Part shown: one piece after another, positions 19,865 through 45,180 of the stretch | Position numbering within the stretch: position 1 is the first letter of the stretch | Layout: each line of letters opens with the position of its first letter | Assembly: GCF_045037415.1 (NCBI RefSeq) | Contig: NZ_CP173440.1 | Direction: 5' to 3' (one strand) | DNA: 64,000 nt | Origin: Escherichia coli | Lineage (GTDB): Bacteria > Pseudomonadota > Gammaproteobacteria > Enterobacterales > Enterobacteriaceae | The notes under the pieces: generated by a model | Seen by the model: only the letters and a program-made list of their open reading frames with translations | The model's database searches: none | What the model was told of the DNA's origin: nothing | Program-made: the position numbers and the translations under genes

Positions 19865-19886
19865 TTCATAACAATACCTGCTGACT

Positions 19887-21219: not shown

Positions 21220-22614
21220 ATGATGCAACTGACGCTCCAGATAGTCATCACCGATGAATCAGGCTCCAGTCGAACGGAGGAACTGATGACAATCCAGAAA
21301 TCAGGGGAAACCCGGAACGACATCGGATTATCGGTGTCAGAATCCAAGCTGTTGCTGAATACGGTCCAGCAGTCGGTGGTCCAGCTGCAGGCAGACGAAT
21401 ATACTCAACACCATATCCGGTGCCCTCACTGCCTTGCTGCGCGCAGAATCAAAGGCAAACAGAAAATACGGTACCGGACGCTGTTTGGCGTTATTCCGGT
21501 ATCCGGGCTTCGGGTGTACCGGTGCCGTTGTGAAGAGAGTGATACAAAGACAGTCAGTTTGCTCAGCGACTGGGCCGGCGATTATTCTCACCCGGCACTG
21601 AAATATATTGAAACCCGCTGGGCCTCGATGATCTCCTATGAAATGACGACTCGTCTGCTGAAAGATATTCTGCCGGTGGGCCACAGCCTGAATGCCTCAA
21701 CGGTGAGGAATCATTTATGCCAGGTGGCGCAGCGTCTTGACGCTGAGGCTGAAGCTCATTCAGGTTTTCTTTCCGGCTGCCCCCGCGACTGGGGGAACCT
21801 GCCCAGGCCAGGAAAACCGCTTGTGGTGGGTATAGATGGTGGTTATGTTCGCGATCGGGATGACAAAAAGCGTAATTTTGAAATTATTGCCGGGAAGTCT
21901 TTTTCCGTTGGTGCGCCTGCTGACACCCGCCGCTTCGGTTTTGTTCAGAAGGATGACTGTCATCCGGAACGCAGGCTCATGACCCACCTTTCAGCGCAGG
22001 GAATGCAGGCCAACCAGCAGATATTTTTTCTGTCCGACGGCGCGGATAATCTCAGGGACCTCCAGTTCGGTATGTACCCTGAGTCAACGCATGTGCTGGA
22101 CTGGTTTCATATCACCATGAGGCTGAAGGTGCTCATGCAATATGCCCGGGGACTGCTGGTATCAGATCCAGAGGCGGGGAGTAAAGTTCTGGCACTGCTG
22201 GAAAGCATTAAACGATATCTCTGGCATGGCAATGTTGTCGCTGCGCTGGAACATATTGATAATTGCGTTATGTATTGCGATGACCCTGAACTCAGCTATC
22301 CTAGCCTGAAATCCCTGCAAAAACATCTGGATGAAATGTATACCTACATCCGGAATAATAAGATGATGATCCCAAACTACGGCGAAATGCGTCGGTACGG
22401 AGAGCCGGTATCAACCGCGTTTGTGGAATCCACGATCAATGAAGTGATCGCCAGACGAATGGCCAAAAAGCAGCAGATGCAGTGGAGCAGAAAAGGGGCT
22501 CATTATTTGTTACAGACCCGGACCGCCGTTTTGAATAACGAACTGCAGGATAAATTTGTCTGCTGGTATCCGGGTTTTCAAAGTGACGGGAAGGGACCAG
22601 CGATGGCAGCATAG
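21220..22614 (+). CDS. ISKra4-family transposase (ISKpn19-like)
   Basis: 464-aa product; assignment from recalled family features and the ISKpn19-tnpR fragment-qnrS1 context. Confidence 0.7.
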   Translation: MMQLTLQIVITDESGSSRTEELMTIQKSGETRNDIGLSVSESKLLLNTVQQSVVQLQADEYTQHHIRCPHCLAARRIKGKQKIRYRTLFGVIPVSGLRVYRCRCEESDTKTVSLLSDWAGDYSHPALKYIETRWASMISYEMTTRLLKDILPVGHSLNASTVRNHLCQVAQRLDAEAEAHSGFLSGCPRDWGNLPRPGKPLVVGIDGGYVRDRDDKKRNFEIIAGKSFSVGAPADTRRFGFVQKDDCHPERRLMTHLSAQGMQANQQIFFLSDGADNLRDLQFGMYPESTHVLDWFHITMRLKVLMQYARGLLVSDPEAGSKVLALLESIKRYLWHGNVVAALEHIDNCVMYCDDPELSYPSLKSLQKHLDEMYTYIRNNKMMIPNYGEMRRYGEPVSTAFVESTINEVIARRMAKKQQMQWSRKGAHYLLQTRTAVLNNELQDKFVCWYPGFQSDGKGPAMAA

Positions 22615-22616
22615 CT

Positions 22617-23075
22617 CACGCTGCCCCAATATTTTTTATGCTCTCGGTCGTATGGAAGCTGGACCGCCTCGGTCGTGATCTTCGTCATCTCATTAATACA
22701 GTGCACGACCTGACCGCGAGGGGGACCGGTCTGAAAGTGCTGACCGGTCACGGGGCGACTATCGACACAACAACGGCCGCTGGCAAGCTTGTCTTCGGTA
22801 TCTTTGCCGCACTGGCGGAGTTTGAGCGCGAACTGATTGCTGAAAGAACGACTGCAGGTCTGGCATCAGCAAGAGCCCGTGGGCGGAACGGCGGCCGACC
22901 TTATAAAATGACGCCAGTCAAACTGCGACTGGCAATGGCATCAATGGGACAATCAGAAACAAAGGTCAGTACGCTATGCCAGGAACTTGGGATAACCCGG
23001 CAAACTTTGTACAGGCATATTTCCCCTGTTGGTCAACTGCGGGCGGACGGGATCAAGCTGCTCAACCGTGGATAA
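22617..23075 (+). pseudogene. tnpR: Tn3-family resolvase TnpR, 5'-truncated (lacks the catalytic Ser region)
   Basis: Product starts at ...KLDRLGRDLRHLINTVHDL, about residue 60 of resolvases. Confidence 0.7.
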
Positions 23076-23393
23076 TTTGAACGGACGGAAAAATCTGGGG
23101 TTCCGGCGTAGTACCCCTATCACCTCCACATTTTTGCAACAGTGCCTTATAAATGGCAGCCTTATGTTTACTTGCCAAGATGGGCTACCATATGATGTTT
23201 TATACTGAGCAATATTAATATTATCTTTAATGGAAAAATTAAGCCCACTAAGTGACCCACTGCTATATGGCTCTATTGTGAAGACGCCTGAGGGTAAAAA
23301 TTTATACATGGTTGTCCCTATGTCTATTATTGCAAGGTTGACAATATTATTCGTTTTATAAATTTGAGCGTTTAAAATCACACATCAAAGCAA

Positions 23394-24050
23394 TTAGTCA
23401 GGATAAACAACAATACCCAGTGCTTCGAGAATCAGTTCTTGCTGCCAGGCTGCAATTTTGATACCTGATGTATCGACTTTGCGGGGATCTAAACCGTCGA
23501 GTTCGGCGTGGCATAAATTGGCACCCTGTAGGCTAAATTGCCCCCAGACATCTTCGGAAAAAACACCTCGACTTAAGTCTGACTCTTTCAGTGATGCACC
23601 CGCTAGGTTCGTTCCTATCCAGCGATTTTCAAACAACTCACATTTTTCTAAACAAACCCTCTCCATATTGGCATAGGAAAGATTACATCCAGAAATAAAT
23701 GCTGAGCAAAAGTACATACGATTACTCACTTGATGGGCAAAGTTTGTTCGGGAAAAGTTGGCACCTTTTAAATCACACGCACGGAACTCTATACCGTAGC
23801 AATTGGCATTACTGAAGTTTGCCATCGCAAGTTGGCATTGTTGGAAACTTGCATCACGAAGATCTGCGACATCAAAGTGGCAGCCTTCGATATCACCCTG
23901 TTCAATGAACTTGCAGTTGACGAATGTCGTATCACGCAAGTTAGCACGTCGAAAGTCGCTGCGAATGAATGTGCAAGCGGTGAAGGTGAGATCACTTAAG
24001 TCTTTATGTGAAAAGTTGTGGTGCCGATATGTATGATTGTAGGTTTCCAT
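23394..24050 (-). CDS. qnrS1: Quinolone-resistance pentapeptide-repeat protein QnrS1
   Basis: 218-aa product METYNHTYRHHNFSHKDLSDLTFTACTFIRSDFRRANLRDTTFVNCKF... Confidence 0.95.
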   Translation of the reverse strand: METYNHTYRHHNFSHKDLSDLTFTACTFIRSDFRRANLRDTTFVNCKFIEQGDIEGCHFDVADLRDASFQQCQLAMANFSNANCYGIEFRACDLKGANFSRTNFAHQVSNRMYFCSAFISGCNLSYANMERVCLEKCELFENRWIGTNLAGASLKESDLSRGVFSEDVWGQFSLQGANLCHAELDGLDPRKVDTSGIKIAAWQQELILEALGIVVYPD

Positions 24051-24417
24051 GAGTACTCCTTGTTGAAAGGAGGGCTAGACTACCATTATACATATGCCAA
24101 GACATTAAAATAAAAGCCTGTTACATCAACACATTACAACCCCTCAATTTACCTGTTTTAAGTGGTCAAATTGGCGCGTAGAGCGCCTATCGCTCTTGCA
24201 TTGGCACGCGGCCCTGTTGAAAAAAGTTATTCGCTTTAGATAGGGTTAGGAGAGCCGTGCTTCGCCGGTAAAAAATCGGACTATCCGACGCAGGGCGGAC
24301 TCATCGGCGGAGAAGCAAACTTTGACTATATCTCCCTACACTTGGAAGAGGGCTAGACTGGCCCCATAGATCACCAGACACTTCGACTCTCTTAAAATAA
24401 GAGGTAGTCTTGGAACT

Positions 24418-24813
24418 ATGTTTAATACCAGTCAGAACGATAAGATGGTTGAAGTGTTATCAGGACCTGAGCGGCGTCGGCGTCGTACACCGCAGGAAAA
24501 AATTGCCATTATTCAGCAGACTATGGAGCCCGGTATGACCGTGTCTCATGTCGCGCGCCTGCATGGCATCAATGCAAACCAGATATTCAAATGGCGCAAG
24601 CAATATTAAGACGGTTCACTGACGGCTGTTGCATCGGGCGAGGAAGTGGTGCCGGCCTCCGAACTCGCTGCCGCCAATAAGCAAATTCGCGAACTCCAGC
24701 GCCTTCTGGGCAAAAAGACGATGGAAGCCGAGATACTCAAAGAGGCCGTGGAGTTCGGCCGGGCAAAAAAATGGATTGCGCATGCGCCCTCGTTGCCTGG
24801 GAACGACGAATAA
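24418..24813 (+). pseudogene. orfA of an IS2-group (IS3-family) element with an in-frame TAA at 24607-24609
   Basis: Frame reads ...QIFKWRKQY[64 protein letters not shown], colinear with IS2 OrfA. Confidence 0.6.
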
Positions 24814-25469
24814 GCGACGTTTGCAGAAGTCTTGGCGTGTCGCGTGCGCAGTTGAGCATTCGGGTTCACCGGCCATCTGACTGACAGGATCGCAGACGGC
24901 AGCCCCGTTCTGACGATACCACCGTATTGTCCCGGATAAACATGGCGGTGGCTGACCTGCCGACGTATGGTTATCGCCGTGTGTGGGCGCTGCTGCGACG
25001 GGAGTCGGAGCGGGACGGCCTGCCTGTGGTTAATGCAAAGCGGGTGTATCGCATTATGAGAACGCATAATCTGCTTCTTGAACGTAAACCCGCTGATCCT
25101 TGCCGTAAGCGGGCCCATAAGGGGCGCGTAGCAGTAGCGGAAAGTAACCGGCGCTGGTGCTCAGATGGCTTTGAGTTCCGCTGTGATAATGGCGAAAAGC
25201 TGCGGGTGACCTTCGCGCAGGACTGCTGCGACAGGGAGATCATTGACTGGGCAGCGAGCACCGGAGGCTATGACAAAGAAACGGTGCAGGATGTCATGCT
25301 GGGTGCGGTGGAAAAACGCTTCGGAAGGCAGTTGCCAACAGTGCCGGCGTTCGCCCGGTTGCTGGGACTGGAGCCTTGTACGACAGCAGTGCGAAGCCCG
25401 GAAAGCAATGGCATAGCAGAAAGCTTCGTGATGACGATAAAACGGGACTACATCAGCATCAGGATTTTA
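24800..25469 (+). pseudogene. orfB of the IS2-group element, internally deleted and 3'-truncated where the Tn3 IR begins
   Basis: ORF-track product 24927-25478 matches IS2 InsD in blocks ([36 protein letters not shown]) with a gap and a premature end. Confidence 0.55.
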
Positions 25470-25507
25470 GGGGTCTGACGCTCAGTGGAACGAAAACTCA
25501 CGTTAAG
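25470..25507. repeat. Tn3-type 38-bp terminal inverted repeat (GGGGTCTGACGCTCAGTGGAACGAAAACTCACGTTAAG)
   Basis: Read directly; overlaps the tnpA stop as in Tn3/Tn2. Confidence 0.85.
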
Positions 25508-27709
25508 CAACGTTTTCTGCCTCTGACGCCTCTTTTAATGGTCTCAGATGTCCTTTGGTCACCAGTTCTGCCAGCGTGAAGGAATAATGGCCGAGCATAT
25601 TGATATGTCCGTGGCAAAGCGGGGAGAGGCGTGCGATATCTTCATCATTCAGTGTTTCACCCTGCGCCCGGAGATGATCCAGGGCTGCCTGCATATAAAT
25701 AGTGTTCCATAACACGACGGCGTTAGTGACCAGCCCCAGTGTGCCCAGTTGATCTTCCTGACCGTCGGTATATCGTTTTCTTATCTCACCTTTTTGACCG
25801 TGACAGATGGCTCTGGCAACGGCATGGCGACTTTCTCCCCGATTAAGCTGGGTCAGAATGCGCCGGCGGTAATCTTCATCATCAATATAATTAAGCAGAT
25901 ACAGCGTTTTGTTGATGCGCCCCACTTCAATGATTGCCTGAGTCAGTCCGGAAGGACGTTCACTTTTCAGCAATGAACGGACCAGCACTGAAACCTGTAC
26001 TTTGCCCAGCTTCAGGGAGCCAGCGGTCCGGATCATTTCGTCCCACTGAAGGACTATTTTTCGGGGATCTGATTGCCCTCTGGCAATATCATTCAGCACG
26101 CCATAGTCGGCATCATGGTCCATTCGCCAGAAAACCGAAGCACCGGCATCAGCCAGGCGTGGAGAAAACTGGTATCCCAGCAGCCAGAAAAGGCCAAAGA
26201 CAAGTTCGCTGGCACCTGCTGTATCGGTCATAATTTCGGTTGGATTCAGCCCGGTTCCTGTTCCAGAAGACCTTCCAGCACAAAGATAGAGTCCCTCAGC
26301 GTCCCCGGTATAACGATGCCATGAAAGCCGGAATACTGATCGGACACAAAGTTGTACCAGGTGATCCCTCTGTTATTACCAAAGTATTTGCGGTTCGGTC
26401 CGGCATTGATTGTTCTGACTGGCGTAACAAAGCGCATTCCATCTGCAGATGCCACTTCTCCTCCACCCCATATCTGTGCCAGTGGCAGCGTTGCCTGAAA
26501 ATCAACCAGTCTGGCATTAGCGCTGGTGATAGTTTCAGCCCGCAGATAGTTCGCTTTTGTCCAGTTCAGCCGGTGTCGGGTCAGTGCAGGAACATTTGAT
26601 CTGATCAGTGGTTCCAGACCGATATTGCAGGCTTCAGCCATCAGCACGGCGCTGATGCTGACGGGCAGATCATCAACTCTGGCACTGGCTTCACTAGCAT
26701 GGAAAAACTCATCAGCAAATCCGGTATGGGCGTTAATTTCGAGCAGCAACTCCGTTAAATCCACCGGAGGGAGTAGATCACTGATCATTTTGCTCAGTCG
26801 TTTCAGACTGTCCGGCTCATCAAGACTGGCGAGGGGAGAAATTGTCAACCGGGGCTTCGGGCCAGAAACATCGAGTTCGACAGCCTCATTTTCGCAAAGA
26901 CGTGCAGCAACCTGTCTGTAACGACTATCAAGCTGATGACCCAGAGATTTTATTGCTTCCTGCGGGTCTGTCGGGTGCCCCAAAGAACGATAAACCTTAA
27001 TCCGGTTTGCCTGCCAGTCAGCACCCTGTAGTAATCTTGCACGAGGATCTCCCCACCGGTTACTGCCGGTAACGTAGACATCCCTCCGCCTCAGACTATC
27101 CTGCAGTTTACTGAGAAAGCAGAGCGTGTATCCCCTGCGGGTGATATGTTTTTCCTTGTTAATCACCAGCCGTTTCCATGACCGACTGATAATTTCCGTT
27201 GGTGCGTCGTCAAAAAACTGCCGCCGTGAGCTGAACTCCCGGCTGAGGTAGTCACAGGCATTCAGAGTGGTAACCCCGGCAGGTGCGGATGAAAATTTAA
27301 CGGTATTCAGCAGATGGGGCAGGAAACGACGAACGCGCCCGTACTGCTCCACCATTTCTTCATGAAAATTATCGTCTGAGGGCCGGGCAATTTCACGGAC
27401 AAGCGTGATGATTTCAGCCAGCTTTTGCCTTGGGATGTAGCTGAACACCTCAGCACGAATCGATTCGTCCGGTGTTTCTTCTTTCAGCAGGTACGAACAT
27501 GCGCTGGCGAGCGCCAATGCAGATTTATCCAGATCCTTCAGCGAGCGGAGCCGTTTTTTCTGCCCAATCTTTCTGGCGTCACGGATGATAACGGCCAGCA
27601 TGGCGTCCAGAACGTCCAATGCATCATCCAGCGCCAGCGTTTCCCATGCAAGGACAAAGGCAACCAGAACCGCCATCCTTTTCTGCGGTGACATCCTGGC
27701 AATATTGAA
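25503..27709 (-). pseudogene. tnpA: Tn3/Tn2-type transposase tnpA, 5'-truncated by IS26 (first ~280 codons missing) with a frameshift near 26231-26246
   Basis: ORF-track products 26246-27694 and 25503-26231 are colinear with TnpA but in different frames; the reading frame runs up to the IS26 boundary. Confidence 0.85.
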
Positions 27710-28529
27710 GGCACTGTTGCAAAGTTAGCGATGAGGCAGCCTTTTGTCTTATTCAAAGGCCTTACATTTCAAAAACTCTGCTTACCAGGCGCATTTCGCC
27801 CAGGGGATCACCATAATAAAATGCTGAGGCCTGGCCTTTGCGTAGTGCACGCATCACCTCAATACCTTTGATGGTGGCGTAAGCCGTCTTCATGGATTTA
27901 AATCCCAGCGTGGCGTTGATTATCCGTTTCAGTTTGCCATGATCGCATTCAATCACGTTGTTCCGGTACTTAATCTGTCGGTGTTCAACGTCAGACGGGC
28001 ACCGGCCTTCGCGTTTGAGCAGAGCAAGCGCGCGACCATAGGCGGGCGCTTTATCCGTGTTGATGAATCGCGGGATCTGCCACTTCTTCACGTTGTTGAG
28101 GATTTTACCCAGAAACCGGTATGCAGCTTTGCTGTTACGACGGGAGGAGAGATAAAAATCGACAGTGCGGCCCCGGCTGTCGACGGCCAGGTACAGATAC
28201 GCCCAGCGGCCATTGACCTTCACGTAGGTTTCATCCATGTGCCACGGGCAAAGATCGGAAGGGTTACGCCAGTACCAGCGCAGCCGTTTTTCCATTTCAG
28301 GCGCATAACGCTGAACCCAGCGGTAAATCGTGGAGTGATCGACATTCACTCCGCGTTCAGCCAGCATCTCCTGCAGCTCACGGTAACTGATGCCGTATTT
28401 GCAGTACCAGCGTACGGCCCACAGAATGATGTCACGCTGAAAATGCCGGCCTTTGAATGGGTTCATGTGCAGCTCCATCAGCAAAAGGGGATGATAAGTT
28501 TATCACCACCGACTATTTGCAACAGTGCC
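27710..28529 (-). mobile_element. IS26 copy 3, variant encoding Tnp26 with G184N and R93L
   Basis: 820 bp with IRs; nucleotide differences from the other copies are cag vs ccg at ~28189 and tt vs cc at ~27916-27917. Confidence 0.95.
27762..28484 (-). CDS. tnp26: IS26-variant transposase (G184N, R93L in the 234-aa numbering)
   Basis: Product has AYLYLAVDS and KRIINATLGF where the other four copies have AYLYRAVDS and [10 protein letters not shown]. Confidence 0.9.
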   Translation of the reverse strand: MLMELHMNPFKGRHFQRDIILWAVRWYCKYGISYRELQEMLAERGVNVDHSTIYRWVQRYAPEMEKRLRWYWRNPSDLCPWHMDETYVKVNGRWAYLYLAVDSRGRTVDFYLSSRRNSKAAYRFLGKILNNVKKWQIPRFINTDKAPAYGRALALLKREGRCPSDVEHRQIKYRNNVIECDHGKLKRIINATLGFKSMKTAYATIKGIEVMRALRKGQASAFYYGDPLGEMRLVSRVFEM

Positions 28530-29284
28530 GTGTACATCGAAATACGGCTTATCAGGCGTTAAAAGATGCTTGCGATGACTTGTTTGCAAGACAATTCAGT
28601 TATCAGAGTCTTAGTGAAAAAGGTAACACTATTAATCACAAATCAAGATGGGTGAGCGAGGTGGCTTATATTGATAATGAAGCTGTCGTTAGACTTATTT
28701 TTGCCCCTGCTATTGTGCCTTTAATTACTAGGTTAGAAGAACAATTTACAAAGTATGAAATACAACAAATAAGTAATTTAACAAGTGCTTATGCTGTTCG
28801 TTTATATGAAATATTGATTGCATGGCGTAGTACTGGAAAAACGCCTCTCATAACTATGTATGATTTTAGACAAAAAATAGGTGTACTCGAGACTGAATAC
28901 AAACGAATGTATGATTTTAAAAAATATGTTTTAGACATTGCATTAAAACAAGTAAATGAACATACCGATATTATTGTCAAAGTTGAACAGCATAAAACAG
29001 GTAGATCTATTACTGGTTTTTCATTTAGCTTTAAACAGAAAAAATCAGCCACGCATTCAGTCGAATCTAAAAGAGATCCGAATACATTAGACCTCTTTTC
29101 AAAAATAACAGATAAACAACGCCATCTATTCGCCAACAAGCTCTCAGAGCTTCCTGAGATGAGTAAATATTCACAAGGCACAGAAAGCTATCAGCAGTTT
29201 GCTGTACGTATAGCTGCCATGCTGCAAGATGCAGAGAAATTTAAGGAATTACTTCCTTTACTCAGAAAATTAGGATTTCAATGA
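28530..29284 (+). pseudogene. Rep_3-family plasmid replication initiator, 5'-truncated by IS26 (Acinetobacter-type, as in Tn1548)
   Basis: C-terminal region ...LYEILIAWRSTGKTPLITMYDFRQKIGVLETEYKRMYDFKKYVLDIALKQVNEH...; low GC. Confidence 0.6.
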
Positions 29285-29350
29285 CATTGTTAATTGAAAT
29301 TGTTAAGTTAACAGTCAGGTATTAACACAAGTTGAAAACTGGTTTACATA

Positions 29351-29893
29351 ATGAAAAAACTGTCAGTTTCAGAGTTAGCTAAGCTTTATGGATATTCAAG
29401 ACAAGCCATATATGCACATATAAACAAAGGAAATTTATCTAAAGGATCTGATGGATTAATTGACTTTTCAGAGGCCCTAAGAGTTTTTGGGGAACCACAA
29501 AAAAAAGAGGATACAGTCAATCAAAGTCAATCAATTAACAGTCAAAACTTGACAGAAGTTGACTTACTAAAACGTCAAGTTGACATACTGGAAAAACAAT
29601 TAAATCAGGCAATACAGAGAGAAAATCAATCTTTAGAACGTGAATCGTTTTATCAAGAACAGATTGAAGCTATGCAGCGCTTACTAGAAGCACCAAAAGC
29701 CAATATGACTACCTTTACCGATCAGAGCTTTAAACAGGATATAGCAACGGATCCTCGGTCGGAACTAGCAACGAACTATGACGAATTGACTACTCCTCAG
29801 CAAGACAATAAGCGTATTCCTATCCCGGAGCATGTTGAACCAGAACAGAAGAAGAGAGGCTTCCTAAGCCGCTTTTTCCTTCCATATGGTTAG
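29351..29893 (+). CDS. Hypothetical HTH DNA-binding protein downstream of the rep fragment
   Basis: 180-aa product with N-terminal HTH-like segment (LSVSELAKLYGYSRQAIYAHINKG) and a coiled-coil middle. Confidence 0.45.
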   Translation: MKKLSVSELAKLYGYSRQAIYAHINKGNLSKGSDGLIDFSEALRVFGEPQKKEDTVNQSQSINSQNLTEVDLLKRQVDILEKQLNQAIQRENQSLERESFYQEQIEAMQRLLEAPKANMTTFTDQSFKQDIATDPRSELATNYDELTTPQQDNKRIPIPEHVEPEQKKRGFLSRFFLPYG

Positions 29894-34965: not shown

Positions 34966-35739
34966 TTATTTCTGAAATCCACTAGTAATATATACTAACT
35001 CATTCCCTATAACCTTCGAATCAAGGATTTTTATCCAACCTTTTGTAAAAGATTCAAACCATAGCTGGTAATTCTCTTCCATTCCCTTCTCCTTTCCAGA
35101 TAAAGACTTTATTGGAAAAGATATTACAAAGTTTTGAGTATGAAAAAGCTGTAGGAAATCCAAGATATTTACATCTTGCTGTTTTAGCACAGGAAGCATC
35201 TTTAAAAGGAATACTACATCATAAGTACCTTTGTAGACATCACTCTCTTTATTCAAAAACCTATACTTTATCGTCGTCTTTAACTTCCCAATAATGCTAC
35301 TCAAAAAAGCTATCTCAGCTCTATCAATATCGTATGCATGATATATTATTTTTTCATTTTCATTCCATTGGTATAAAGCTAATGGATTGAAGCCACAACC
35401 AAAATCTAAAATAGATGAGACATGTTTGATATTTCCAAATACATAAGTGTAAAAGTCATTTAATGTTGCGACTCTTTCATTCGTCGAAGAATGAATCTTT
35501 AGTAAATCTTCTATTGATAACTGCCCCTGATTGTACTTTTTTAATAATTTATCCCAATTAGGATAGGCAGAATAGTAAGACCCCCATATTTGATGCAATT
35601 TCTTTTTAGAATAATTCTCAACTTCCTTTAATTTATATTTCTTCTCAGAAATGGAAACAACCTTTTCAACAATATCTGAATCAAGGTTTTCGTACTTTTT
35701 TGATTCAAGTATCTTCTTAACAACATCATTCTTATCCAT
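34966..35739 (-). CDS. armA: 16S rRNA (guanine1405-N7)-methyltransferase ArmA (pan-aminoglycoside resistance)
   Basis: 257-aa product MDKNDVVKKILESKKYENLDSDIVEKVVSISEKKYKLKEV...; the ORF-track entry 34966-35808 has an N-terminal extension. Confidence 0.95.
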   Translation of the reverse strand: MDKNDVVKKILESKKYENLDSDIVEKVVSISEKKYKLKEVENYSKKKLHQIWGSYYSAYPNWDKLLKKYNQGQLSIEDLLKIHSSTNERVATLNDFYTYVFGNIKHVSSILDFGCGFNPLALYQWNENEKIIYHAYDIDRAEIAFLSSIIGKLKTTIKYRFLNKESDVYKGTYDVVFLLKMLPVLKQQDVNILDFLQLFHTQNFVISFPIKSLSGKEKGMEENYQLWFESFTKGWIKILDSKVIGNELVYITSGFQK

Positions 35740-35952
35740 TTGAAAGAACCTACAAGTTAAGTATTTGATAGGAACTGTCATTTCGGGTTTTTTGCGGTTT
35801 CGGGTCAAAATTCGGTTTTTCCCCCAAACTACGACTGTTTTCGCACCCCGAACAACTAATCCAATCAGAATTTTCCGGCAACGCCGACTCTAAGAAGTGT
35901 AATTCCAGTCCATTTCTGCCGTCAACCCCTGATTCGCGTTAATGCGACAAAG
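35740..35952 (-). mobile_element. Remnant upstream of armA (ISEc28-type end expected from Tn1548 context), truncated by IS26
   Basis: Non-coding ~210 bp between armA and the IS26 IR; identity inferred from context only. Confidence 0.35.
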
Positions 35953-36772
35953 GGCACTGTTGCAAATAGTCGGTGGTGATAAACTTATCATCCCCTTTTG
36001 CTGATGGAGCTGCACATGAACCCATTCAAAGGCCGGCATTTTCAGCGTGACATCATTCTGTGGGCCGTACGCTGGTACTGCAAATACGGCATCAGTTACC
36101 GTGAGCTGCAGGAGATGCTGGCTGAACGCGGAGTGAATGTCGATCACTCCACGATTTACCGCTGGGTTCAGCGTTATGCGCCTGAAATGGAAAAACGGCT
36201 GCGCTGGTACTGGCGTAACCCTTCCGATCTTTGCCCGTGGCACATGGATGAAACCTACGTGAAGGTCAATGGCCGCTGGGCGTATCTGTACCGGGCCGTC
36301 GACAGCCGGGGCCGCACTGTCGATTTTTATCTCTCCTCCCGTCGTAACAGCAAAGCTGCATACCGGTTTCTGGGTAAAATCCTCAACAACGTGAAGAAGT
36401 GGCAGATCCCGCGATTCATCAACACGGATAAAGCGCCCGCCTATGGTCGCGCGCTTGCTCTGCTCAAACGCGAAGGCCGGTGCCCGTCTGACGTTGAACA
36501 CCGACAGATTAAGTACCGGAACAACGTGATTGAATGCGATCATGGCAAACTGAAACGGATAATCGGCGCCACGCTGGGATTTAAATCCATGAAGACGGCT
36601 TACGCCACCATCAAAGGTATTGAGGTGATGCGTGCACTACGCAAAGGCCAGGCCTCAGCATTTTATTATGGTGATCCCCTGGGCGAAATGCGCCTGGTAA
36701 GCAGAGTTTTTGAAATGTAAGGCCTTTGAATAAGACAAAAGGCTGCCTCATCGCTAACTTTGCAACAGTGCC
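35953..36772 (+). mobile_element. IS26 copy 4 (opposite orientation to copies 1-3 and 5)
   Basis: 820 bp with IRs. Confidence 0.95.
35998..36720 (+). CDS. tnp26: IS26 transposase Tnp26
   Basis: Identical to the copy 1 product. Confidence 0.95.
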   Translation: MLMELHMNPFKGRHFQRDIILWAVRWYCKYGISYRELQEMLAERGVNVDHSTIYRWVQRYAPEMEKRLRWYWRNPSDLCPWHMDETYVKVNGRWAYLYRAVDSRGRTVDFYLSSRRNSKAAYRFLGKILNNVKKWQIPRFINTDKAPAYGRALALLKREGRCPSDVEHRQIKYRNNVIECDHGKLKRIIGATLGFKSMKTAYATIKGIEVMRALRKGQASAFYYGDPLGEMRLVSRVFEM

Positions 36773-37788
36773 GTTAAAAGCAACAAAAATGACTTCGTTG
36801 ATGCTGAAGCTATCTGTGAAGCAGCATCACGTCCATCTATGCGTTTCGTGCAGCCCAGAACCGAATCTCAGCAGGCAATGCGAGCTCTGCTCTGCATCGT
36901 GTCCGTGAATCCCTGGTTCAGGATAAGGTGAAAACAACTAATCAGATGCATGCTTTTCTGCTGGAATTTGGTATCAGCGTTCCGCGAGGTGCTGCCGTTA
37001 TTAGTCGACTGAGTACCCTTCTTGAGGACAGTAGTTTGCCTCTTTATCTCAGCCAGTTACTGCTGAAATTACAACAGCATTATCACTATCTTGTTGAGCA
37101 GATTAAAGATCTGGAATCTCAGTTGAAACGAAAGTTGGACGAAGATGAGGTTGGACAGCGCTTGCTGAGTATTCCCTGCGTTGGAACGCTGACTGCCAGT
37201 ACTATTTCAACTGAGATTGGCGACGGGAAGCAGTACGCCAGCAGCCGTGACTTTGCGGCGGCAACAGGGCTGGTACCCCGACAGTACAGCACGGGAGGTC
37301 GGACGACATTGTTAGGGATTAGCAAGCGGGGCAACAAAAAGATCCGAACTTTGTTGGTTCAGTGTGCCAGGGTATTCATACAAAAACTGGAACACCAGTC
37401 TGGCAAGTTGGCCGACTGGGTCAGGGAGTTGTTGTGTCGGAAAAGCAACTTTGTCGTCACCTGTGCTCTGGCAAACAAGCTGGCCAGAATAGCCTGGGCA
37501 CTGACGGCGCGACAGCAAACTTACGAAGCATAAAGGCAGAAATACACCAGTTTAAACAATCATTCATCTGGTTTTGCGAATACTGATATTGATGATACTA
37601 ACGGCCCACCGGCCTGTTGAGGAACCTGTAAAACGGAAAGGCTCATTGAAGCCGTATATTTTCTGGAGGTTCATCAGGCGCGGAACTCATCGAGGCGCGG
37701 GAATAAAATCCCATTCAGACGCCGGATAGATTCAAGCAAGCCAACTTGTCGTCAAAATCGGTGTTGCAAAAACGGGAGTGACCATAGA
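36773..37788 (+). mobile_element. IS4321/IS5075-type element, 5'-truncated by IS26 (3' ~1.0 kb retained); a distinct variant of the copy at 3159-4485
   Basis: Transposase C-terminal part present (ORF track 36928-37533) with 4 aa differences from the complete copy (D/S, I/V, D/E, V/E); element end ...agtgaccataga at 37788. Confidence 0.8.
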
Positions 37789-37811
37789 TTCCGTTTTCTG
37801 AGGCGACCCCC
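37789..37811. repeat. Outer part of a second Tn21-type 38-bp IR (reverse complement GGGGGTCGCCTCAGAAAACGGAA) adjoining the IS4321-like end
   Basis: Read directly; the remainder of the transposon it belonged to is absent. Confidence 0.7.
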
Positions 37812-37891
37812 ACATAGAGACCTTCCCGGTCATTCACTTTGTAGAGTTTGTCCCTGGGCTTGAGATTGCGCAGCTTGGTATCGGTCAGCAT
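37812..37891 (-). pseudogene. int: First 27 codons of a P4-type tyrosine integrase, interrupted by the Tn21-type IR
   Basis: Reverse complement reads MLTDTKLRNLKPRDKLYKVNDREGLYV, the conserved N-terminus of P4-like integrases, then runs into IR sequence. Confidence 0.5.
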
Positions 37892-38220
37892 GTACCTTGT
37901 CCTTCTTCGTCTCCGATACCCACTCTATTGTAAACAAGACATTTTTATCTTTTATATTCAATGGCTTATTTTTCTGCTAATTGGTAATACCATGAAAAAT
38001 ACCATGCTCAGAAAAGGCTTAACAATATTTTGAAAAATTGCCTACTGAGCGCTGCCGCACAGCTCCATAGGCCGCTTTCCTGGCTTTGCTTCCAGATGTA
38101 TGCTATTCTGCTCCTGCAGCTAATGGATCACCGCAAACAGGTTACTCGCCTGGGGATTCCCTTTCGACCCGAGCATCCGTATGAGACTCATGCTCGATTA
38201 TTATTATTATAGAAGCCCCC

Positions 38221-39036
38221 ATGAATAAATCGCTCATCATTTTCGGCATCGTCAACATAACCTCGGACAGTTTCTCCGATGGAGGCCGGTATCTGGCGCC
38301 AGACGCAGCCATTGCGCAGGCGCGTAAGCTGATGGCCGAGGGGGCAGATGTGATCGACCTCGGTCCGGCATCCAGCAATCCCGACGCCGCGCCTGTTTCG
38401 TCCGACACAGAAATCGCGCGTATCGCGCCGGTGCTGGACGCGCTCAAGGCAGATGGCATTCCCGTCTCGCTCGACAGTTATCAACCCGCGACGCAAGCCT
38501 ATGCCTTGTCGCGTGGTGTGGCCTATCTCAATGATATTCGCGGTTTTCCAGACGCTGCGTTCTATCCGCAATTGGCGAAATCATCTGCCAAACTCGTCGT
38601 TATGCATTCGGTGCAAGACGGGCAGGCAGATCGGCGCGAGGCACCCGCTGGCGACATCATGGATCACATTGCGGCGTTCTTTGACGCGCGCATCGCGGCG
38701 CTGACGGGTGCCGGTATCAAACGCAACCGCCTTGTCCTTGATCCCGGCATGGGGTTTTTTCTGGGGGCTGCTCCCGAAACCTCGCTCTCGGTGCTGGCGC
38801 GGTTCGATGAATTGCGGCTGCGCTTCGATTTGCCGGTGCTTCTGTCTGTTTCGCGCAAATCCTTTCTGCGCGCGCTCACAGGCCGTGGTCCGGGGGATGT
38901 CGGGGCCGCGACACTCGCTGCAGAGCTTGCCGCCGCCGCAGGTGGAGCTGACTTCATCCGCACACACGAGCCGCGCCCCTTGCGCGACGGGCTGGCGGTA
39001 TTGGCGGCGCTGAAAGAAACCGCAAGAATTCGTTAA
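38221..39036 (+). CDS. sul2: Sulfonamide-resistant dihydropteroate synthase Sul2
   Basis: 271-aa product MNKSLIIFGIVNITSDSFSDGGRYLAPDAAIAQARKLMAEGADVIDLGPASSNPDAAP... Confidence 0.97.
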   Translation: MNKSLIIFGIVNITSDSFSDGGRYLAPDAAIAQARKLMAEGADVIDLGPASSNPDAAPVSSDTEIARIAPVLDALKADGIPVSLDSYQPATQAYALSRGVAYLNDIRGFPDAAFYPQLAKSSAKLVVMHSVQDGQADRREAPAGDIMDHIAAFFDARIAALTGAGIKRNRLVLDPGMGFFLGAAPETSLSVLARFDELRLRFDLPVLLSVSRKSFLRALTGRGPGDVGAATLAAELAAAAGGADFIRTHEPRPLRDGLAVLAALKETARIR

Positions 39037-39122: not shown

Positions 39123-39425
39123 ATGGTGCGCAAATATTTCGGCACAGACGGTATTCGTGGCAAAGCCAACGAAGGCGCGATGACGGCGGAAACCGCCTTG
39201 CGCGTCGGCATGGCGGCTGGCCGTGTCTTTCGTCGCGGTGACCACCGCCATCGTGTCGTGATCGGCAAGGATACGCGCCTGTCGGGCTATATGCTTGAAC
39301 CCGCGCTCACAGCCGGTTTCACCTCGATGGGCATGGACGTATTCCTTTTTGGCCCGCTGCCGACAACGTATAGGAAGAATAAACGCCCTTTTCACCCAAG
39401 TCCAACAGCTTTGGACCGCAGTTGA
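39123..39425 (+). pseudogene. glmM: Phosphoglucosamine mutase glmM, 5' fragment (the usual sul2-linked remnant)
   Basis: [36 protein letters not shown]... then loss of similarity. Confidence 0.8.
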
Positions 39426-39559
39426 CTCTTTCGACACCCCTGCGATGCAACCCAATCCGGCTGACGGGGAGCCAGCAACGCTGAAAATTTACCCTCCTCT
39501 TTCCCACTAGCGGCTCCTTTTCCGACAACCAGCACGGCGGATCCCTGCCGCGGCGCTGT

Positions 39560-41200
39560 GAACGCAGCATTTTGATTGGTATCGTTGGCCTTCAGGCTCG
39601 TCAGTCAAACAGACCCAGGAGCAGCTCAGCCGGTGGCGCCCGGCTTTCGGGTAACGCCCTGGTCCCGCTGGTTTCGGCTTTGTGCTTCAGGTGATCAAGG
39701 ATCTGCTTGATCACTATAGGGTCTTCAATGCAGGCGATGACTTTCATGGCGCCGCCGCAGCCGCTGCAGGTCTCGATGTCGATATTGAAAACACGCTTGA
39801 GCCGTTGCGCCCATGTCATCGACGCTCGCCGTTGTGCTGGTGTTGCCGGTTCATCAGCCACCCTGACCTTGTTGCCCCTGCCCCGTTTTGCCGGCGTGAC
39901 CAACGCCCGGTGCCGACTGTTGGGTGCGAACACCCCGTGGAAGCGGGTTAGGTTGACTCTGGGCTTCGGTACCAGGGCGGCCAGCCTTGCAATGAAATCC
40001 AATGGTTCGAAAATGACGTGCGTGGTGCCGTCCCGGTACGGCGTCTTGAGCTGGTAGCGCACGTTGCCGCCTCGTGTTAACGACAGCCGCTTCTCGGATA
40101 CCGCCGGGCGGCTGATGTACCGGCACAGCCGTTCGAGCTTCTTGCGTTCATCGGCCCTGGCCGCCACGCCGGCGTGCAGGCTGGACCCGGCTACCTTGCC
40201 AATCCCGTCACCGAACGGATCACCACTGGTCGGCAGAGTTTGCAAAGTGAACACCTTTCGCCCCGCCTGTGAACCGACAGCGATACGGTAAGTGATCGAG
40301 TGCCCCAGCAGGGGTGTCATCGGGTCGTCATCCACCGCATCCGAGGCCAGATAGCTGTTTTCGACATCCCGTTCCAGCAGGCCTTGCCGTTCCAGATAGC
40401 GACCCACCCGGTGGGCGATGGTGTGCGTCAGCTGGGTGAGCTCTGGGCTGGTCGGCGCCTTGACCCAGCGGAAACGCGCTGAGCCGTGGGATTGCTCGAC
40501 ATACACACCGTCGAGAAACAGCATGTGGAAGTGAACATTCAGATTGAGCGCCGATCCAAAACGCTGGATCAGGGTGACCGCGCCCGTCTTGGCCACTTGG
40601 TGGGTATGGCCCGCTTTCTTGACCAGGTGCGTGGCAATGACGCGGTAAACGATGCCCAGCACCCACCCCATGATCTCGGGCCGGCTGGCAAACAGGAAAC
40701 GCAGCTGAAACGGGAAGCTCAACACCCACTGACGCATGGGTTGTTCAGGCAGTACTTCATCAACCAGCAAGGCGGCACTTTCGGCCATCCGCCGCGCCCC
40801 ACAGCTCGGGCAGAAACCGCGACGCTTACAGCTGAAAGCGACCAGGTGCTCGGCGTGGCAAGACTCGCAGCGAACCCGTAGAAAGCCATGCTCCAGCCGC
40901 CCGCATTGGAGAAATTCTTCAAATTCCCGTTGCACATAGCCCGGCAATTCCTTTCCCTGCTCTGCCATAAGCGCAGCGAATGCCGGGTAATACTCGTCAA
41001 CGATCTGATAGAGAAGGGTTTGCTCGGGTCGGTGGCTCTGGTAACGACCAGTATCCCGATCCCGGCTGGCCGTCCTGGCCGCCACATGAGGCATGTTCCG
41101 CGTCCTTGCAATACTGTGTTTACATACAGTCTATCGCTTAGCGGAAAGTTCTTTTACCCTCAGCCGAAATGCCTGCCGTTGCTAGACATTGCCAGCCAGT
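39560..41200 (-). mobile_element. ISCR2 (IS91-like rolling-circle element); oriIS side towards the glmM fragment; ends approximate
   Basis: Contains the 497-aa Rcr2 transposase; canonical sul2-glmM fragment-ISCR2 arrangement. Confidence 0.7.
39601..41094 (-). CDS. rcr2: ISCR2 rolling-circle transposase (Rcr2)
   Basis: 497-aa product MPHVAARTASRDRDTGRYQSHRPEQTLLYQIVDEYYPAFAALMAEQGKELPGYVQREF... Confidence 0.9.
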   Translation of the reverse strand: MPHVAARTASRDRDTGRYQSHRPEQTLLYQIVDEYYPAFAALMAEQGKELPGYVQREFEEFLQCGRLEHGFLRVRCESCHAEHLVAFSCKRRGFCPSCGARRMAESAALLVDEVLPEQPMRQWVLSFPFQLRFLFASRPEIMGWVLGIVYRVIATHLVKKAGHTHQVAKTGAVTLIQRFGSALNLNVHFHMLFLDGVYVEQSHGSARFRWVKAPTSPELTQLTHTIAHRVGRYLERQGLLERDVENSYLASDAVDDDPMTPLLGHSITYRIAVGSQAGRKVFTLQTLPTSGDPFGDGIGKVAGSSLHAGVAARADERKKLERLCRYISRPAVSEKRLSLTRGGNVRYQLKTPYRDGTTHVIFEPLDFIARLAALVPKPRVNLTRFHGVFAPNSRHRALVTPAKRGRGNKVRVADEPATPAQRRASMTWAQRLKRVFNIDIETCSGCGGAMKVIACIEDPIVIKQILDHLKHKAETSGTRALPESRAPPAELLLGLFD

Positions 41201-41304
41201 GCCCGTCACTCCCACTCGATTGTAAACAAGCACACAAAACCCTTTAGTGACAACAATTTGCAAGAACTATCAGGCTCAGTGCCATGAAAAATACCATGAC
41301 CAGA

Positions 41305-41529
41305 TCATGAGGTTGAACACGGCTTGCGCCGGCAGCGTTCACGCTCCTGGTCGGCGATCTCGCCCGGCTGCAATGCTAGCTCAGCATCGGTCATGCGCTC
41401 CAGCACGTCGCGTAGGCGGATGGTGCAAGGAATGGGCGGCAGCTCGAACTCATAGCCGCCGGCGATCATTTCGGCCGCAATCTCCTCGGTGATGAAAAAC
41501 GGCTCGTCGTCTTGGTTCGGCTTCTTCAT
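41305..41529 (-). CDS. Small hypothetical protein between resG and ISCR2
   Basis: 74-aa ORF whose start overlaps the resG stop by 4 bp (41526-41529). Confidence 0.4.
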   Translation of the reverse strand: MKKPNQDDEPFFITEEIAAEMIAGGYEFELPPIPCTIRLRDVLERMTDAELALQPGEIADQERERCRRKPCSTS

Positions 41530-42263
41530 GCCCTTTCCTCCTGGCGCTCATCCTGGCCGACAGCGGCCAGGGCATCGGCTTCCGTCAATGCGTCCTCCAC
41601 GAACGCGCCGTGCTGCTTCGCTTCGGCCTGGCTGACCTCGGCCCATATCCGTTTCACCTGGGCCGCACTGTACCCGGCCAGCTCGGCGGTCTTGTTGATG
41701 CTGTAGCCGGACTTGCGCAGCGCGACAACTTGGGCGCGGCGCTTCGGATCAGCACGGCGGCCCTTGTACCGCCCGGCCTGGCGGGCCAACTCAATGCCTT
41801 GGCGCTGGCGTTCGCGCCTGTCCTCGTAGTCGTCGCGGGCCATCTGCAAGGCCAGGCGAAAAAGCATGATCTGCACGGCTTCCAGCACGATCTTGGCGAC
41901 GCCCTGGGCCTCGGCCGCCAGGTCGGATAGATCGACCACGCCAGGGACGGCCAGGCTTGCGCCTTTGGCCTGTATCGAGGCCACCAGGCGCTCGGCCTCG
42001 GGCAAAGGTAGGCGGCTGATGCGGTCGATCTTCTCGGCAATGACCACCTCGCCGGGCTGTAGGTCGCCGATCATGCGCAGCAGCTCAGGCCGGTCGGCGC
42101 GTGCGCCGGATGCCTTCTCACGGTAGATGCCGGCGACGTAGTAGCCGGCGGCCTTCGCGGCCGTAGTGATCGCCTCTTGGCGTTCCAAGTCCTGCGCGTC
42201 GGTGCTGACGCGCAGATAGACCCGCGCCACCATCGGCGCGGCTACTGGCTTCGTCCTGCGCAT
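41526..42263 (-). CDS. resG: Serine recombinase/resolvase (ResG-like, as found next to ISCR2 in GIsul2-derived regions)
   Basis: 245-aa product with N-terminal YLRVSTDAQDLERQ serine-recombinase motif. Confidence 0.75.
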   Translation of the reverse strand: MRRTKPVAAPMVARVYLRVSTDAQDLERQEAITTAAKAAGYYVAGIYREKASGARADRPELLRMIGDLQPGEVVIAEKIDRISRLPLPEAERLVASIQAKGASLAVPGVVDLSDLAAEAQGVAKIVLEAVQIMLFRLALQMARDDYEDRRERQRQGIELARQAGRYKGRRADPKRRAQVVALRKSGYSINKTAELAGYSAAQVKRIWAEVSQAEAKQHGAFVEDALTEADALAAVGQDERQEERA

Positions 42264-42387
42264 ACTTGCGGGCTCCTTTGGGCATACGCAAAGTGTCCGG
42301 TCATGCTACCCCCGGCCAAAAAGGCCGTCATGCGATTTATCTTGGCCGGGTCGTTATTGGCGGGTCTAAATGGCCGCTCCGTGGATC

Positions 42388-42600
42388 TCATCGCCAGAAA
42401 TGGCGATGCGAGATCCAGGGCAGGGCGGCCGCCATCGTCAGACCTGGCGATGGTCGACGCCGGCGCGCATCGTCGGATGTGGCGATGCGAGCTCGAGGTC
42501 GGTGGCCACCGCCGGCGACCTGGTGCCATCGTCGGCAATGGCGATGCTGCAGCTCGACGTGCGCGGCCTGGTCGTCTCGGCATCGTCGGATGCGGCGATG
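42388..42600. repeat. Array of five 20-bp palindromic sites, consensus CATCGYC-N6-GRCGATG, 125-340 bp upstream of resG
   Basis: Sites read at 42388-42407, 42433-42452, 42468-42487, 42527-42546 and 42581-42600. Confidence 0.75.
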
Positions 42601-42842
42601 CTCGAGCGAGGCGAAAAAAAACCGCCTCGGGGTGTCCGAGGCGGCAAGTCTGCATGCGGTTCAGGGAGGAAGAAACCGCGCCGGCGATCAGGGAGGAAAA
42701 CCGCGCGGCCTGATGTGCAGCTCGGCCACTTTAGCCGGATTTTTCGACTTATCCGATGCGAGCGGCCCGCCGTGGGCGCTGCTCGATCTGCTGTTGCTTT
42801 TTCTCGACGTGCTTCTGCTCCTGGTGCTGCTGCTCGTCGCGC

Positions 42843-43662
42843 GGCACTGTTGCAAAGTTAGCGATGAGGCAGCCTTTTGTCTTATTCAAAGGCCTTACAT
42901 TTCAAAAACTCTGCTTACCAGGCGCATTTCGCCCAGGGGATCACCATAATAAAATGCTGAGGCCTGGCCTTTGCGTAGTGCACGCATCACCTCAATACCT
43001 TTGATGGTGGCGTAAGCCGTCTTCATGGATTTAAATCCCAGCGTGGCGCCGATTATCCGTTTCAGTTTGCCATGATCGCATTCAATCACGTTGTTCCGGT
43101 ACTTAATCTGTCGGTGTTCAACGTCAGACGGGCACCGGCCTTCGCGTTTGAGCAGAGCAAGCGCGCGACCATAGGCGGGCGCTTTATCCGTGTTGATGAA
43201 TCGCGGGATCTGCCACTTCTTCACGTTGTTGAGGATTTTACCCAGAAACCGGTATGCAGCTTTGCTGTTACGACGGGAGGAGAGATAAAAATCGACAGTG
43301 CGGCCCCGGCTGTCGACGGCCCGGTACAGATACGCCCAGCGGCCATTGACCTTCACGTAGGTTTCATCCATGTGCCACGGGCAAAGATCGGAAGGGTTAC
43401 GCCAGTACCAGCGCAGCCGTTTTTCCATTTCAGGCGCATAACGCTGAACCCAGCGGTAAATCGTGGAGTGATCGACATTCACTCCGCGTTCAGCCAGCAT
43501 CTCCTGCAGCTCACGGTAACTGATGCCGTATTTGCAGTACCAGCGTACGGCCCACAGAATGATGTCACGCTGAAAATGCCGGCCTTTGAATGGGTTCATG
43601 TGCAGCTCCATCAGCAAAAGGGGATGATAAGTTTATCACCACCGACTATTTGCAACAGTGCC
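42843..43662 (-). mobile_element. IS26 copy 5
   Basis: 820 bp with IRs. Confidence 0.95.
42895..43617 (-). CDS. tnp26: IS26 transposase Tnp26
   Basis: Identical to the copy 1 product. Confidence 0.95.
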
Positions 43663-45180
43663 CTTTCGACTACCTCCCCTCAAAGCCATATCACGTACGT
43701 TAATCCTGACTTCATTAAAATCAGTGGTTTCACTGAGGAAGAACTATTAGGCCAGCCTCACAACATCGTAAGACACCCAGATATGCCGCCTGCTGCATTT
43801 GAGCATATGTGGAGTACATTAAAATCTGGCCGCTCATGGATGGGGCTAGTAAAAAATCGCTGTAAAAATGGCGACCACTATTGGGTAAGTGCTTATGTAA
43901 CGCCAATAGCTAAGAATGGTTCGATTGTTGAATACCAGTCTGTAAGGACCAAGCCTGAACCTGAGCAGGTTTTGGCTGCGGAAAAATTATATGCTCAATT
44001 GAGAAGCGGGAAGGCCGCGAGGCCGAAATTGGCTGCTAGCTTTTCCGTGAAAATACTCTTGCTCATATGGGGTAGTATTATATCAAGCGCAATGGCTGCC
44101 GGCATGCTTACTGATACATCAATAAGCAGCTTATTGTTAGCCACTTTAATGTCAGGAAGCTTAAGCTCTGTTAGTGTTTTGGCTATTCTCTCTCCTCTTG
44201 GAAGACTGGTTGAAAGAGCCAGGAATATTTCCAATAACCCATTAAGTCAATCCCTCTACACTGGGCGCACCGATGAGTTTGGCCAAATAGAGTTTGCTTT
44301 ACGAATGATGCAAGCTGAAACAGGCGCCATAGTAGGTCGCATAGGTGATGCATCAAATCGGCTTAGCGAACACACCCGAGGCCTACTAAAGGATATTGAG
44401 TCAAGCAATGTACTTACAGTTGAGCAGCAGGCAGAGACAGATCAAATAGCAACGGCAGTAAACCAAATGGTGGCAAGCATTCAAGAGGTTGCGAGCAATG
44501 CACAGCATGCTGCAGATGCGGCCGGAAGAGCAGACACTGAGACGGCATCTGGCCAGCGTCTGGTAGCCCACACAAGCCAGTCAATCACTGCCCTTGAAGG
44601 TGAAATTAGGCAAGCCACTCAGGTTATTCATGAGCTTGAAGGTCAAAGTAACGAGATATCAAAAGTTCTTGACGTTATACGAGGGATCGCCGAGCAAACG
44701 AATTTGTTGGCACTCAACGCAGCAATTGAGGCCGCGCGTGCTGGTGAGCAGGGGCGTGGTTTTGCTGTTGTCGCCGATGAGGTTCGCAGTCTTGCTGCTC
44801 GCACACAGCAATCGACAACGGATATTCAAAGCATGATCAGCGCTCTACAAGAGCGAGCGCAATCCGCTGTTACAGTCATGGAGCAAAGTAGTCGGCAAGC
44901 GCACACGAGTGTAGCTCACGCAGAGGAAGCAGCTACAGCTCTTGATGGAATTGGCCAACGCGTTAACGAAATTACCGACATGAACGCGCAAATAGCGACT
45001 GCGGTCGAGCAGCAGGGAGCAGTAAGTGAAGACATAAACCGCAGTATTATCAATATACGCGATGCTGCTGATACCAATGTACAGACCGGGCAGAATAATT
45101 TGCAAAGTGCGAAATCTGTCGCTCAGTTAACTAGCGCTCTGAGCGAACTGGCAAAACAGTTTTGGGAAAAACGAGGATAA
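43663..45180 (+). pseudogene. Methyl-accepting chemotaxis protein with PAS domain (Aer-like), 5'-truncated by IS26
   Basis: After the IS26 end the frame reads a PAS-like segment ([41 protein letters not shown]), two TM helices, then an MCP signalling domain ([35 protein letters not shown]). Confidence 0.75.

Follow-up and report, generated by a model that had tools for sequence, protein, structure and literature searches.

The closest described system is the island GIsul2. [quoted passage not shown] 2022, PMC9376610). Int excises either the whole island or the interval between attLR and attR, which was named the CR2-sul2 unit. Excision was abolished by deletion of int or of the att sites, and was unaffected by deletion of rcr2. 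attLR was located 112-130 bp upstream of rcr2, and Int also accepts relaxed sites (TGGG, GGGA) at low frequency (PMC9376610). According to PMC9376610, Leclercq et al. 2016 predicted the boundaries of the CR2-sul2 unit too. In the laboratory, nested PCR was needed to detect GIsul2 excision.

A fragment of the island, 'ΔGIsul2', has been mapped as well. In the accessible parts of PMC6908951 and PMC6737455, plasmid and prophage maps place it next to an IS5075-interrupted terminal inverted repeat (IR), and the transposon owning the IR is named Tn1696 or Tn6346. These parts call the fragment the '3′ end of GIsul2' and mention no int stub or att junction. The stretch analyzed here, 64,000 nucleotides of Escherichia coli DNA (the window), contains the same DNA as these maps and plasmid pKPN5, namely resG-orf225-ISCR2-ΔglmM-sul2 followed by IS5075 in a Tn21-family IR. 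The object is thus already known: ΔGIsul2 has been mapped, and the att sites and their recombination have been published. Three points appear to be unreported in the accessible literature: an attP-type joint with an int stub, a 280-bp deletion of the pKPN5 form as the common form, and conserved CATGGYAT arrays. They refine a described system rather than define a new kind. Our comparisons indicate that the region is very probably the fossil of a GIsul2 attP-type junction, later altered by a transposon insertion and the 280-bp deletion.

Organization of the ΔGIsul2 segment

The features of the segment are listed in Table 1. Read on the minus strand, their order is IS26, a 550-bp GC-rich stretch, resG, orf225, an att site, ISCR2, the glmM fragment, sul2, a second att site, the int stub, the IR, IS5075 and IS26. 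The two IS26 copies are inverted relative to each other and bound a segment of 6.07 kb. The copy that truncates IS5075 matches the IS26 of pKPN5 at 100%. Directly beside it lies armA, a 16S rRNA methylase gene (34966-35808). The other copy truncates the 5′ end of a PAS-domain methyl-accepting chemotaxis (aerotaxis-like) gene at 43663-45180; the 702-aa ORF reported there by the ORF finder is a fusion that begins within IS26. At least five complete IS26 copies (starts 10445, 12284, 27710, 35953 and 42843) are present in the window, together with an extra terminal repeat at 23133-23146.

Table 1. Features of the ΔGIsul2 segment, in window coordinates
Feature	Position	Strand	Basis or remark
IS26 truncating IS5075	35953..36772	+	14-bp terminal repeats at 35953 and 36759-36772; tnpA ORF 35998-36720
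IS5075 3′ part (IS1111/IS110 family, IS4321-like), inside 38-bp IR	36773..37788	+	collinear with pEGY22_CTX_15 and pKPN5
tnpA-end 38-bp IR of Tn21-subfamily transposon, outer 22 nt	37789..37810	-	reads GGGGTCGCCTCAGAAAACGGAA on minus strand
GIsul2 tyrosine integrase gene, first 27 codons	37811..37891	-	111/111 nt match to int
int leader remnant, 27 nt	37892..37918	-	deletion junction 37918/37919; GG (37919-37920) common to both sides
att*, 19-bp attR/attP-derived site, TACAATA-GAGTGGGT-ATCG	37914..37932	-	7/8 core bases kept
Sul2-side arm of GIsul2 attR/attP (sul2 upstream region)	37933..38220	-	matches to pAB3, pKPN5 and p123
Block 2 at sul2, two tandem CATGGTAT repeats	37987-37994, 37999-38006	-	motif search
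sul2	38221..39036	+	271-aa ORF; annotated sul2 at 100% in matching records
Truncated glmM fragment, sul2-ISCR2 interval	39123..39365	+	ORF; arrangement as in PMC9376610
ISCR2 (CR2)	39366..41215	-	rcr2 41094->39601, 497-aa ORF; IS91-like ISVsa3/ISCR2 transposase annotation
Proposed terIS GCCAGTGCCCGTCACTCCC	41197-41215	-	sequence from PMC9376610
attLR, internal GIsul2 att site, TACAATC-GAGTGGGA-GTGA	41206..41224	-	112-130 bp upstream of rcr2, as published
Block 2 copy at attLR: CATGGCAC (41279-41286), CATGGTAT (41291-41298)	41279..41304	-	motif search
GIsul2 right-hand backbone: orf225 (41529->41305), resolvase resG (42263->41526)	41305..42292	-	identity to E. coli P377 and pAB3
Second IS26, inverted relative to first	42843..43662	-	terminal repeats; tnpA 43617->42895

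The island part of the segment is closely related to GIsul2 in pAB3 of A. baumannii. Window positions 42292->38200 are 99.95% identical to that record, and ISCR2 homology to the IncC record ARI-B begins at 39366. The backbone (gene names resG and orf225 as in PMC6908951) is 99.7% identical to positions 28807-29893 of the P377 record and 99.95% identical to GIsul2 in pAB3. In pAB3, the sul2-side arm is broken by ISAba1 about 20 bp upstream of sul2. The rest of this arm (37919-38199) is at least 99.9% identical to pKPN5 and to plasmid p123 of V. tubiashii. sul2 retains its normal 302-bp upstream region, which ends in GAGTGGG (37925-37919). In IncC-type and RSF1010-type contexts, homology to this region stops at 37918/37919, the end of the island. 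An alignment to both island ends, proposed in the first-pass annotation, placed the GIsul2 right end (the sul2 upstream arm running into the att core) on the sul2 side of the junction as far as GAGTGGG, and left-end sequence, with 280 bp of its arm missing, on the int side. A promoter and terminator scan of 37780-38300 gave counts near those of shuffled sequences.

Homology to GIsul2 stops 29 bp upstream of resG, where the canonical island has an ars operon. The 550-bp GC-rich stretch between resG and IS26 (42293-42842) is not GIsul2 DNA. It contains five palindromic repeats, CATCGYC-N6-GGCGATG, spaced 35-59 bp apart, is found in more than 1,700 plasmids, and resembles, at about 80% similarity, the sequence that follows traC in a Sphaerotilus IncP plasmid. 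Because GIsul2 homology ends upstream of resG and gives way to IncP-1-like DNA, the fragment may have come directly from a GIsul2 variant or a GIsul2/IncP-1-like hybrid rather than from canonical GIsul2. We also considered a crossover at the res site of the resolvase as the origin of this break, and rejected it since there is no similarity past the breakpoint.

On the other side of sul2, the 27-codon integrase remnant seen in the first-pass annotation is genuine. It translates as MLTDTKLRNLKPRDKLYKVNDREGLYV, and its start codon (ATG at 37891) is divergent from that of sul2 (ATG at 38221), with 329 bp between them. Three independent records (GI12K of E. coli P377, IncC ARI-B, and GIsul2 in pAB3) match positions 37920->37810 at 111 of 111 nucleotides across their int start and leader. 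The stub is therefore not a chance match. Full-length Int, which is present in related sequences, has 400 residues. A tblastn search of the window found no int beyond the 27-codon stub. No integrase is encoded at the window locus, which is inert by itself. In RefSeq, the ORF reading through the stub is labeled 'Arm DNA-binding domain-containing protein'.

The stub is cut by the outer end of a 38-bp IR carrying an IS4321-like element, as had been described. The 38-bp IR is the usual target of IS5075. In pEGY22_CTX_15, an intact IS5075 (~1.33 kb) sits at the fixed position inside this IR, flanked by the outer 22 nt and by the inner part AATAAAGCACGCTAAG, which is followed by a Tn21-family tnpA; the inner 16 nt and tnpA thus lie on the far side of IS5075. 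In the window, IS5075 is cut by IS26 at 36772/36773, and only the outer part of the IR is left because IS26 removed the rest. ORF 36928-37533 corresponds to the C-terminal part of the IS5075 transposase, whose intact version (WP_000427619.1) is present in pEGY22_CTX_15 and pKPN5.

Repeated blocks and att sites

Two sequence blocks upstream of sul2 had been noticed to recur, in the same order and spacing, just upstream of the ISCR2 transposase start. Our comparison bears this out. Block 1 (37919-37938 and 41211-41230) matches at 19 of 20 positions and block 2 (37990-38012 and 41282-41304) at 21 of 23, with an offset of exactly 3,292 bp for each pair. No comparable matches were found in 100 shuffles of the window. 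The ~50 bp that separate block 1 from block 2 are not conserved between the copies. The blocks are two conserved motifs at a fixed spacing and not a recent duplication. The second copy of the blocks is located 117-210 bp upstream of the rcr2 start (41094). It lies outside ISCR2 except for 5 nt overlapping the proposed terIS.

By its sequence, block 1 is an att core with its left flank, belonging to attLR upstream of ISCR2 and to an attR-derived site upstream of sul2. On the minus strand, 41206-41224 reads TACAATCGAGTGGGAGTGA, the attLR of the CR2-sul2 unit, and a core search located the exact GAGTGGGA in the window at attLR only. The site near sul2, termed att*, agrees with canonical attR at 16 of 19 positions. 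It has the same orientation as attLR, 3,292 bp away, and is located about 304 bp upstream of sul2. The window thus contains the same 3,292-bp interval as the published CR2-sul2 unit, with attLR at the same distance from rcr2 and the other boundary at the same distance from sul2. Unlike in the published unit, the right-hand site is flanked by the int leader rather than by guaA-downstream or plasmid DNA. At each of the two sites, the block 2 motifs are 68 and 80 bp away from the core.

A probable attP-type junction and its deletion

In integrated GIsul2, the order of elements is guaA-attL-int ... resG-attLR-ISCR2-ΔglmM-sul2-attR, and the core is found ~308 bp upstream of the int ATG. Excision or tandem integration brings the sul2 arm beside the int arm, giving resG-attLR-ISCR2-sul2-att-int. 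We built a synthetic attP query from the sul2 arm, the core, the left (280-bp int) arm of the P377 island, and int. Positions 1-693 of this query are matched without interruption, at 99.7-99.9% identity, in 19 plasmids including pKPN5. All 19 matches stop at the same codon-27 transposon junction. Since pKPN5 carries the canonical attP and is collinear with the window, the adjacency of sul2 and int is best read as an attP-type junction. We infer that it arose in this lineage by Int-mediated recombination between attL and attR.

The first-pass annotation had suggested a junction formed from a circularised island. Both GIsul2 ends and the 19 plasmids with canonical attP agree with this. However, the window junction is not an intact attP, as 280 bp are gone, and by sequence alone a circle and a tandem array are indistinguishable as its source. 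Like the published attPGIsul2 (Zhang et al. 2022, PMC9376610), the junction joins the sul2-side arm through a GAGTGGG core to the int side, in the same circular permutation, resG-attLR-CR2-sul2-att-int, and its relative pKPN5 has the full predicted attP. It differs from attPGIsul2 in lacking 280 bp of the int-side arm, including four of the five conserved CATGGYAT motifs, in having T and not A as the eighth core base, and in retaining only 27 codons of int. It is also fixed in plasmids, whereas attPGIsul2 is a rare intermediate detectable by PCR.

Other forms of the joint were found. V. tubiashii ATCC 19109 p123 has the canonical attP, and there a different Tn3-family transposon interrupts int at about codon 9. 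This looks like an independent fossil of the same attP joint. The region of p123 (8188-9640), in the type strain of the species, has the Tn3-family transposon in two copies and strA-strB nearby, without ISCR2. The E. coli WP2-W18-ESBL-10 chromosome (NZ_AP021935.1, 672431-672860) carries the canonical undeleted form, as a two-piece match over 430 bp. The sul2-attP arrangement beside a full-length int was found neither in plasmids nor in 80 chromosomal relatives. The reciprocal product of the transposon insertion, with the other transposon IR next to int from codon 28 onward, was sought in the 61 plasmids with the int 3′ part and was found in none; these plasmids have full-length int or IncC-type truncations elsewhere in the gene. 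Integration of a CR2-sul2 circle upstream of int was considered too. It predicts guaA or int-arm DNA upstream of rcr2, where the window has orf225-resG, and was rejected. The E. coli P377 chromosome (from lettuce, Brazil) has GI12K at guaA (17714-29893), with attLR serving as attR; this element is GIsul2 without the ISCR2-sul2 unit. Only three complete genomes were reported to have the GI12K form, all betaproteobacteria (Zhang et al., PMC9376610).

On the int side of the window junction, the int start and 29 nt of leader are identical to GIsul2, and the other 280 bp are missing but present in pKPN5 (7303-7582 of the pKPN5 locus). The two BLAST segments overlap at 37919-37920. The left end of the deletion lies within the core (GAGTGG|G) and the right end within CATGG|TAT, 32 bp before the int ATG; the two endpoints share 2 nt only. 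At the join, the window reads GAGTGGGT (7/8) where pKPN5 has GAGTGGGA, and GAGTGGGTATCGG is the junction sequence of the deleted form. The left end is the same nucleotide at which homology stops in the RSF1010-type and IncC-type sul2 contexts.

pKPN5 (K. pneumoniae MGH 78578) is collinear with the window on both sides of the deletion, including IS5075 and the resG-side IS26 boundary. The collinear sequence has one mismatch in 3,559 nt, and the transposon/int codon-27 junction is identical. pKPN5 lacks 77 bp of the orf225/resG overlap (~3744-3748 of its locus) that the window keeps at 41478-41554, so neither is the direct parent of the other. From the shared junctions, parsimony suggests the following order of events. 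A Tn21-subfamily transposon would have inserted into int after codon 27, inactivating it, and IS5075 would then have entered the 38-bp IR of this transposon. The stage with full attP, transposon and IS5075 appears to persist in pKPN5. The 280-bp deletion would next have stripped nearly all of the int-side arm, giving the window junction, and IS26 copies would finally have trimmed both sides. Both forms share the same broken int, suggesting that the deletion is later than the inactivation of int. It could be either a spontaneous microhomology event or the product of relaxed-specificity Int; in the latter case Int would be needed in trans, because int was already broken.

A rival reading of the junction is that it was never a canonical attP. 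Int would have joined the attR/attP core directly to a CATGGTAT pseudo-core 32 bp upstream of int, so that the window form is primary and the pKPN5 form is unrelated or secondary. We consider this unlikely, although several observations fit it. GIsul2 Int uses TGGG and GGGA relaxed sites at low frequency (PMC9376610), the left breakpoint (37918-37920) coincides with the end of genuine Int junctions in IncC-type and RSF1010-type contexts, and GG-AT is common to the two sites when they are aligned in the register of the observed product. But the near identity of the window and pKPN5, which have the transposon/int junction, IS5075 and the IS26 boundary in common, indicates that the two forms diverged after int was destroyed. 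Two separate origins would require the same transposon insertion twice, and the 280 bp are unlikely to be regained from the deleted form. Int acting in trans on the pKPN5 form to catalyze the deletion is a sub-variant of the attP-fossil reading and does not support a primary pseudo-core joint.

The repeated blocks had also been interpreted as a possible second ISCR2-related end, in which case rolling-circle transposition of ISCR2 from a terIS-like sequence would have set sul2 beside int. ISCR elements have been proposed to mobilize neighboring DNA (PMC9376610), and block 1 at 41211-41230 overlaps the proposed terIS by 5 nt. The overlap is confined to those few bases: of terIS GGGAGTGACGGGCACTGGC, only the first few, within the core, recur at 37919 at the putative second end, and the terIS body GCCAGTGCCCGTCAC is not repeated near sul2. 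Therefore the blocks are integrase sites, not ISCR2 ends. Both are on the island side, outside ISCR2, and the sul2-side boundary is the Int core and neither oriIS nor terIS. In addition, recombination in the experiments of PMC9376610 depended on int and att and not on rcr2. An ISCR2 origin is thus very improbable. The comparisons refute the possibility, raised in the first-pass annotation itself, that the 27 codons are a chance match and 37892-38220 is ordinary sul2 upstream sequence without any link to an island. It is correct that 37919-38220 is the standard 302-bp upstream region, present wherever sul2 occurs. However, the end of this region lies exactly within the att core, three independent GIsul2/GI12K records match the int start and leader over the full 111 nt, and pKPN5 preserves the canonical attP intermediate.

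Spread, arm motifs and possible residual mobility

The fragment is widespread. A 148-nt junction query was covered over at least 80% of its length in 1,895 plasmids. About 20 of these have the canonical two-piece form and about 1,875 the deleted form, which dominates. The junction was also matched in 409 of 5,426 complete E. coli genomes (7.5%). With about 1,900 plasmids carrying it, the fragment is a well-travelled relic and not a new system.

Block 2 is part of a larger set of motifs. The 14.7-kb pKPN5 locus contains six copies of CATGGTAT, compared to 0.45 expected, of which five are within 400 bp of attP and one is at attLR. The canonical int-side arm has three more exact CATGGTAT copies and two CATGGCAT variants, in both orientations. 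From alpha-, beta- and gammaproteobacteria, we collected 80 loci whose integrases share 88-100% identity with GIsul2 Int; nearly all of these loci are at the 3′ end of guaA. One scan confirmed 373 relatives of GIsul2 Int. Among the 68 distinct int-side arms compared (median pairwise identity 0.60), the five motif positions (-32, -100, -127, -145 and -177 from the ATG) are conserved at 0.976 and the rest of the arm at 0.676. None of 10,000 random window sets reached 0.976. Several blocks with TGGCA in this arm (about 320 bp upstream of int) are highly conserved as well, for example GTCTGGCACAG beside the core.

Heterobivalent tyrosine integrases of the lambda/P4 class bind arm-type sites. The CATGGYAT arrays resemble such sites: they are short repeats in both orientations, on both arms and within ~300 bp of the core, their positions are kept among diverged elements, and the integrase has an N-terminal Arm DNA-binding (DUF4102) domain. 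Unlike the lambda/P4-class sites, the GIsul2 motif is a candidate identified by its conservation. The arrays, including block 2, are probable candidate arm-type sites for the N-terminal domain of Int; binding of AlpA or of a host factor is an alternative role. Zhang et al. (PMC9376610) do not use the word 'arm', and in the literature searched no other paper deals with GIsul2 attP or with the arm sites of guaA integrases.

The 3,292-bp ISCR2-sul2 unit in the window lies between an intact attLR and a site that keeps 7/8 core bases and the whole sul2-side arm. For this reason, a GIsul2-family integrase acting in trans could plausibly still excise it. Otherwise, the whole segment is inferred to travel as IS26-bounded cargo. 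A broader reading would make ΔGIsul2 a natural record of excision, its unit excisable by guaA-island integrases via the CATGGYAT arms, and its deletion Int-catalyzed at a pseudo-site. We regard this combination as possible but tentative.

Few carriers of sul2 in Enterobacterales plasmids are more common than this fragment. Read as an attP-type joint, it provides sequence evidence that an excision-type junction of GIsul2 formed in natural isolates; its carriers include pKPN5 and a plasmid from the type strain of V. tubiashii. For annotation, a small 'Arm DNA-binding/DUF4102' pseudogene beside sul2 can be taken as the GIsul2 int stub. The CATGGYAT arrays offer testable arm-site candidates for a large family of guaA-targeting integrases, and such arms could explain why attLR and attR are good substrates compared to arbitrary copies of GAGTGGGA. 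If the unit is excisable in trans, sul2 would retain a site-specific way of moving that needs neither IS26 nor ISCR2.
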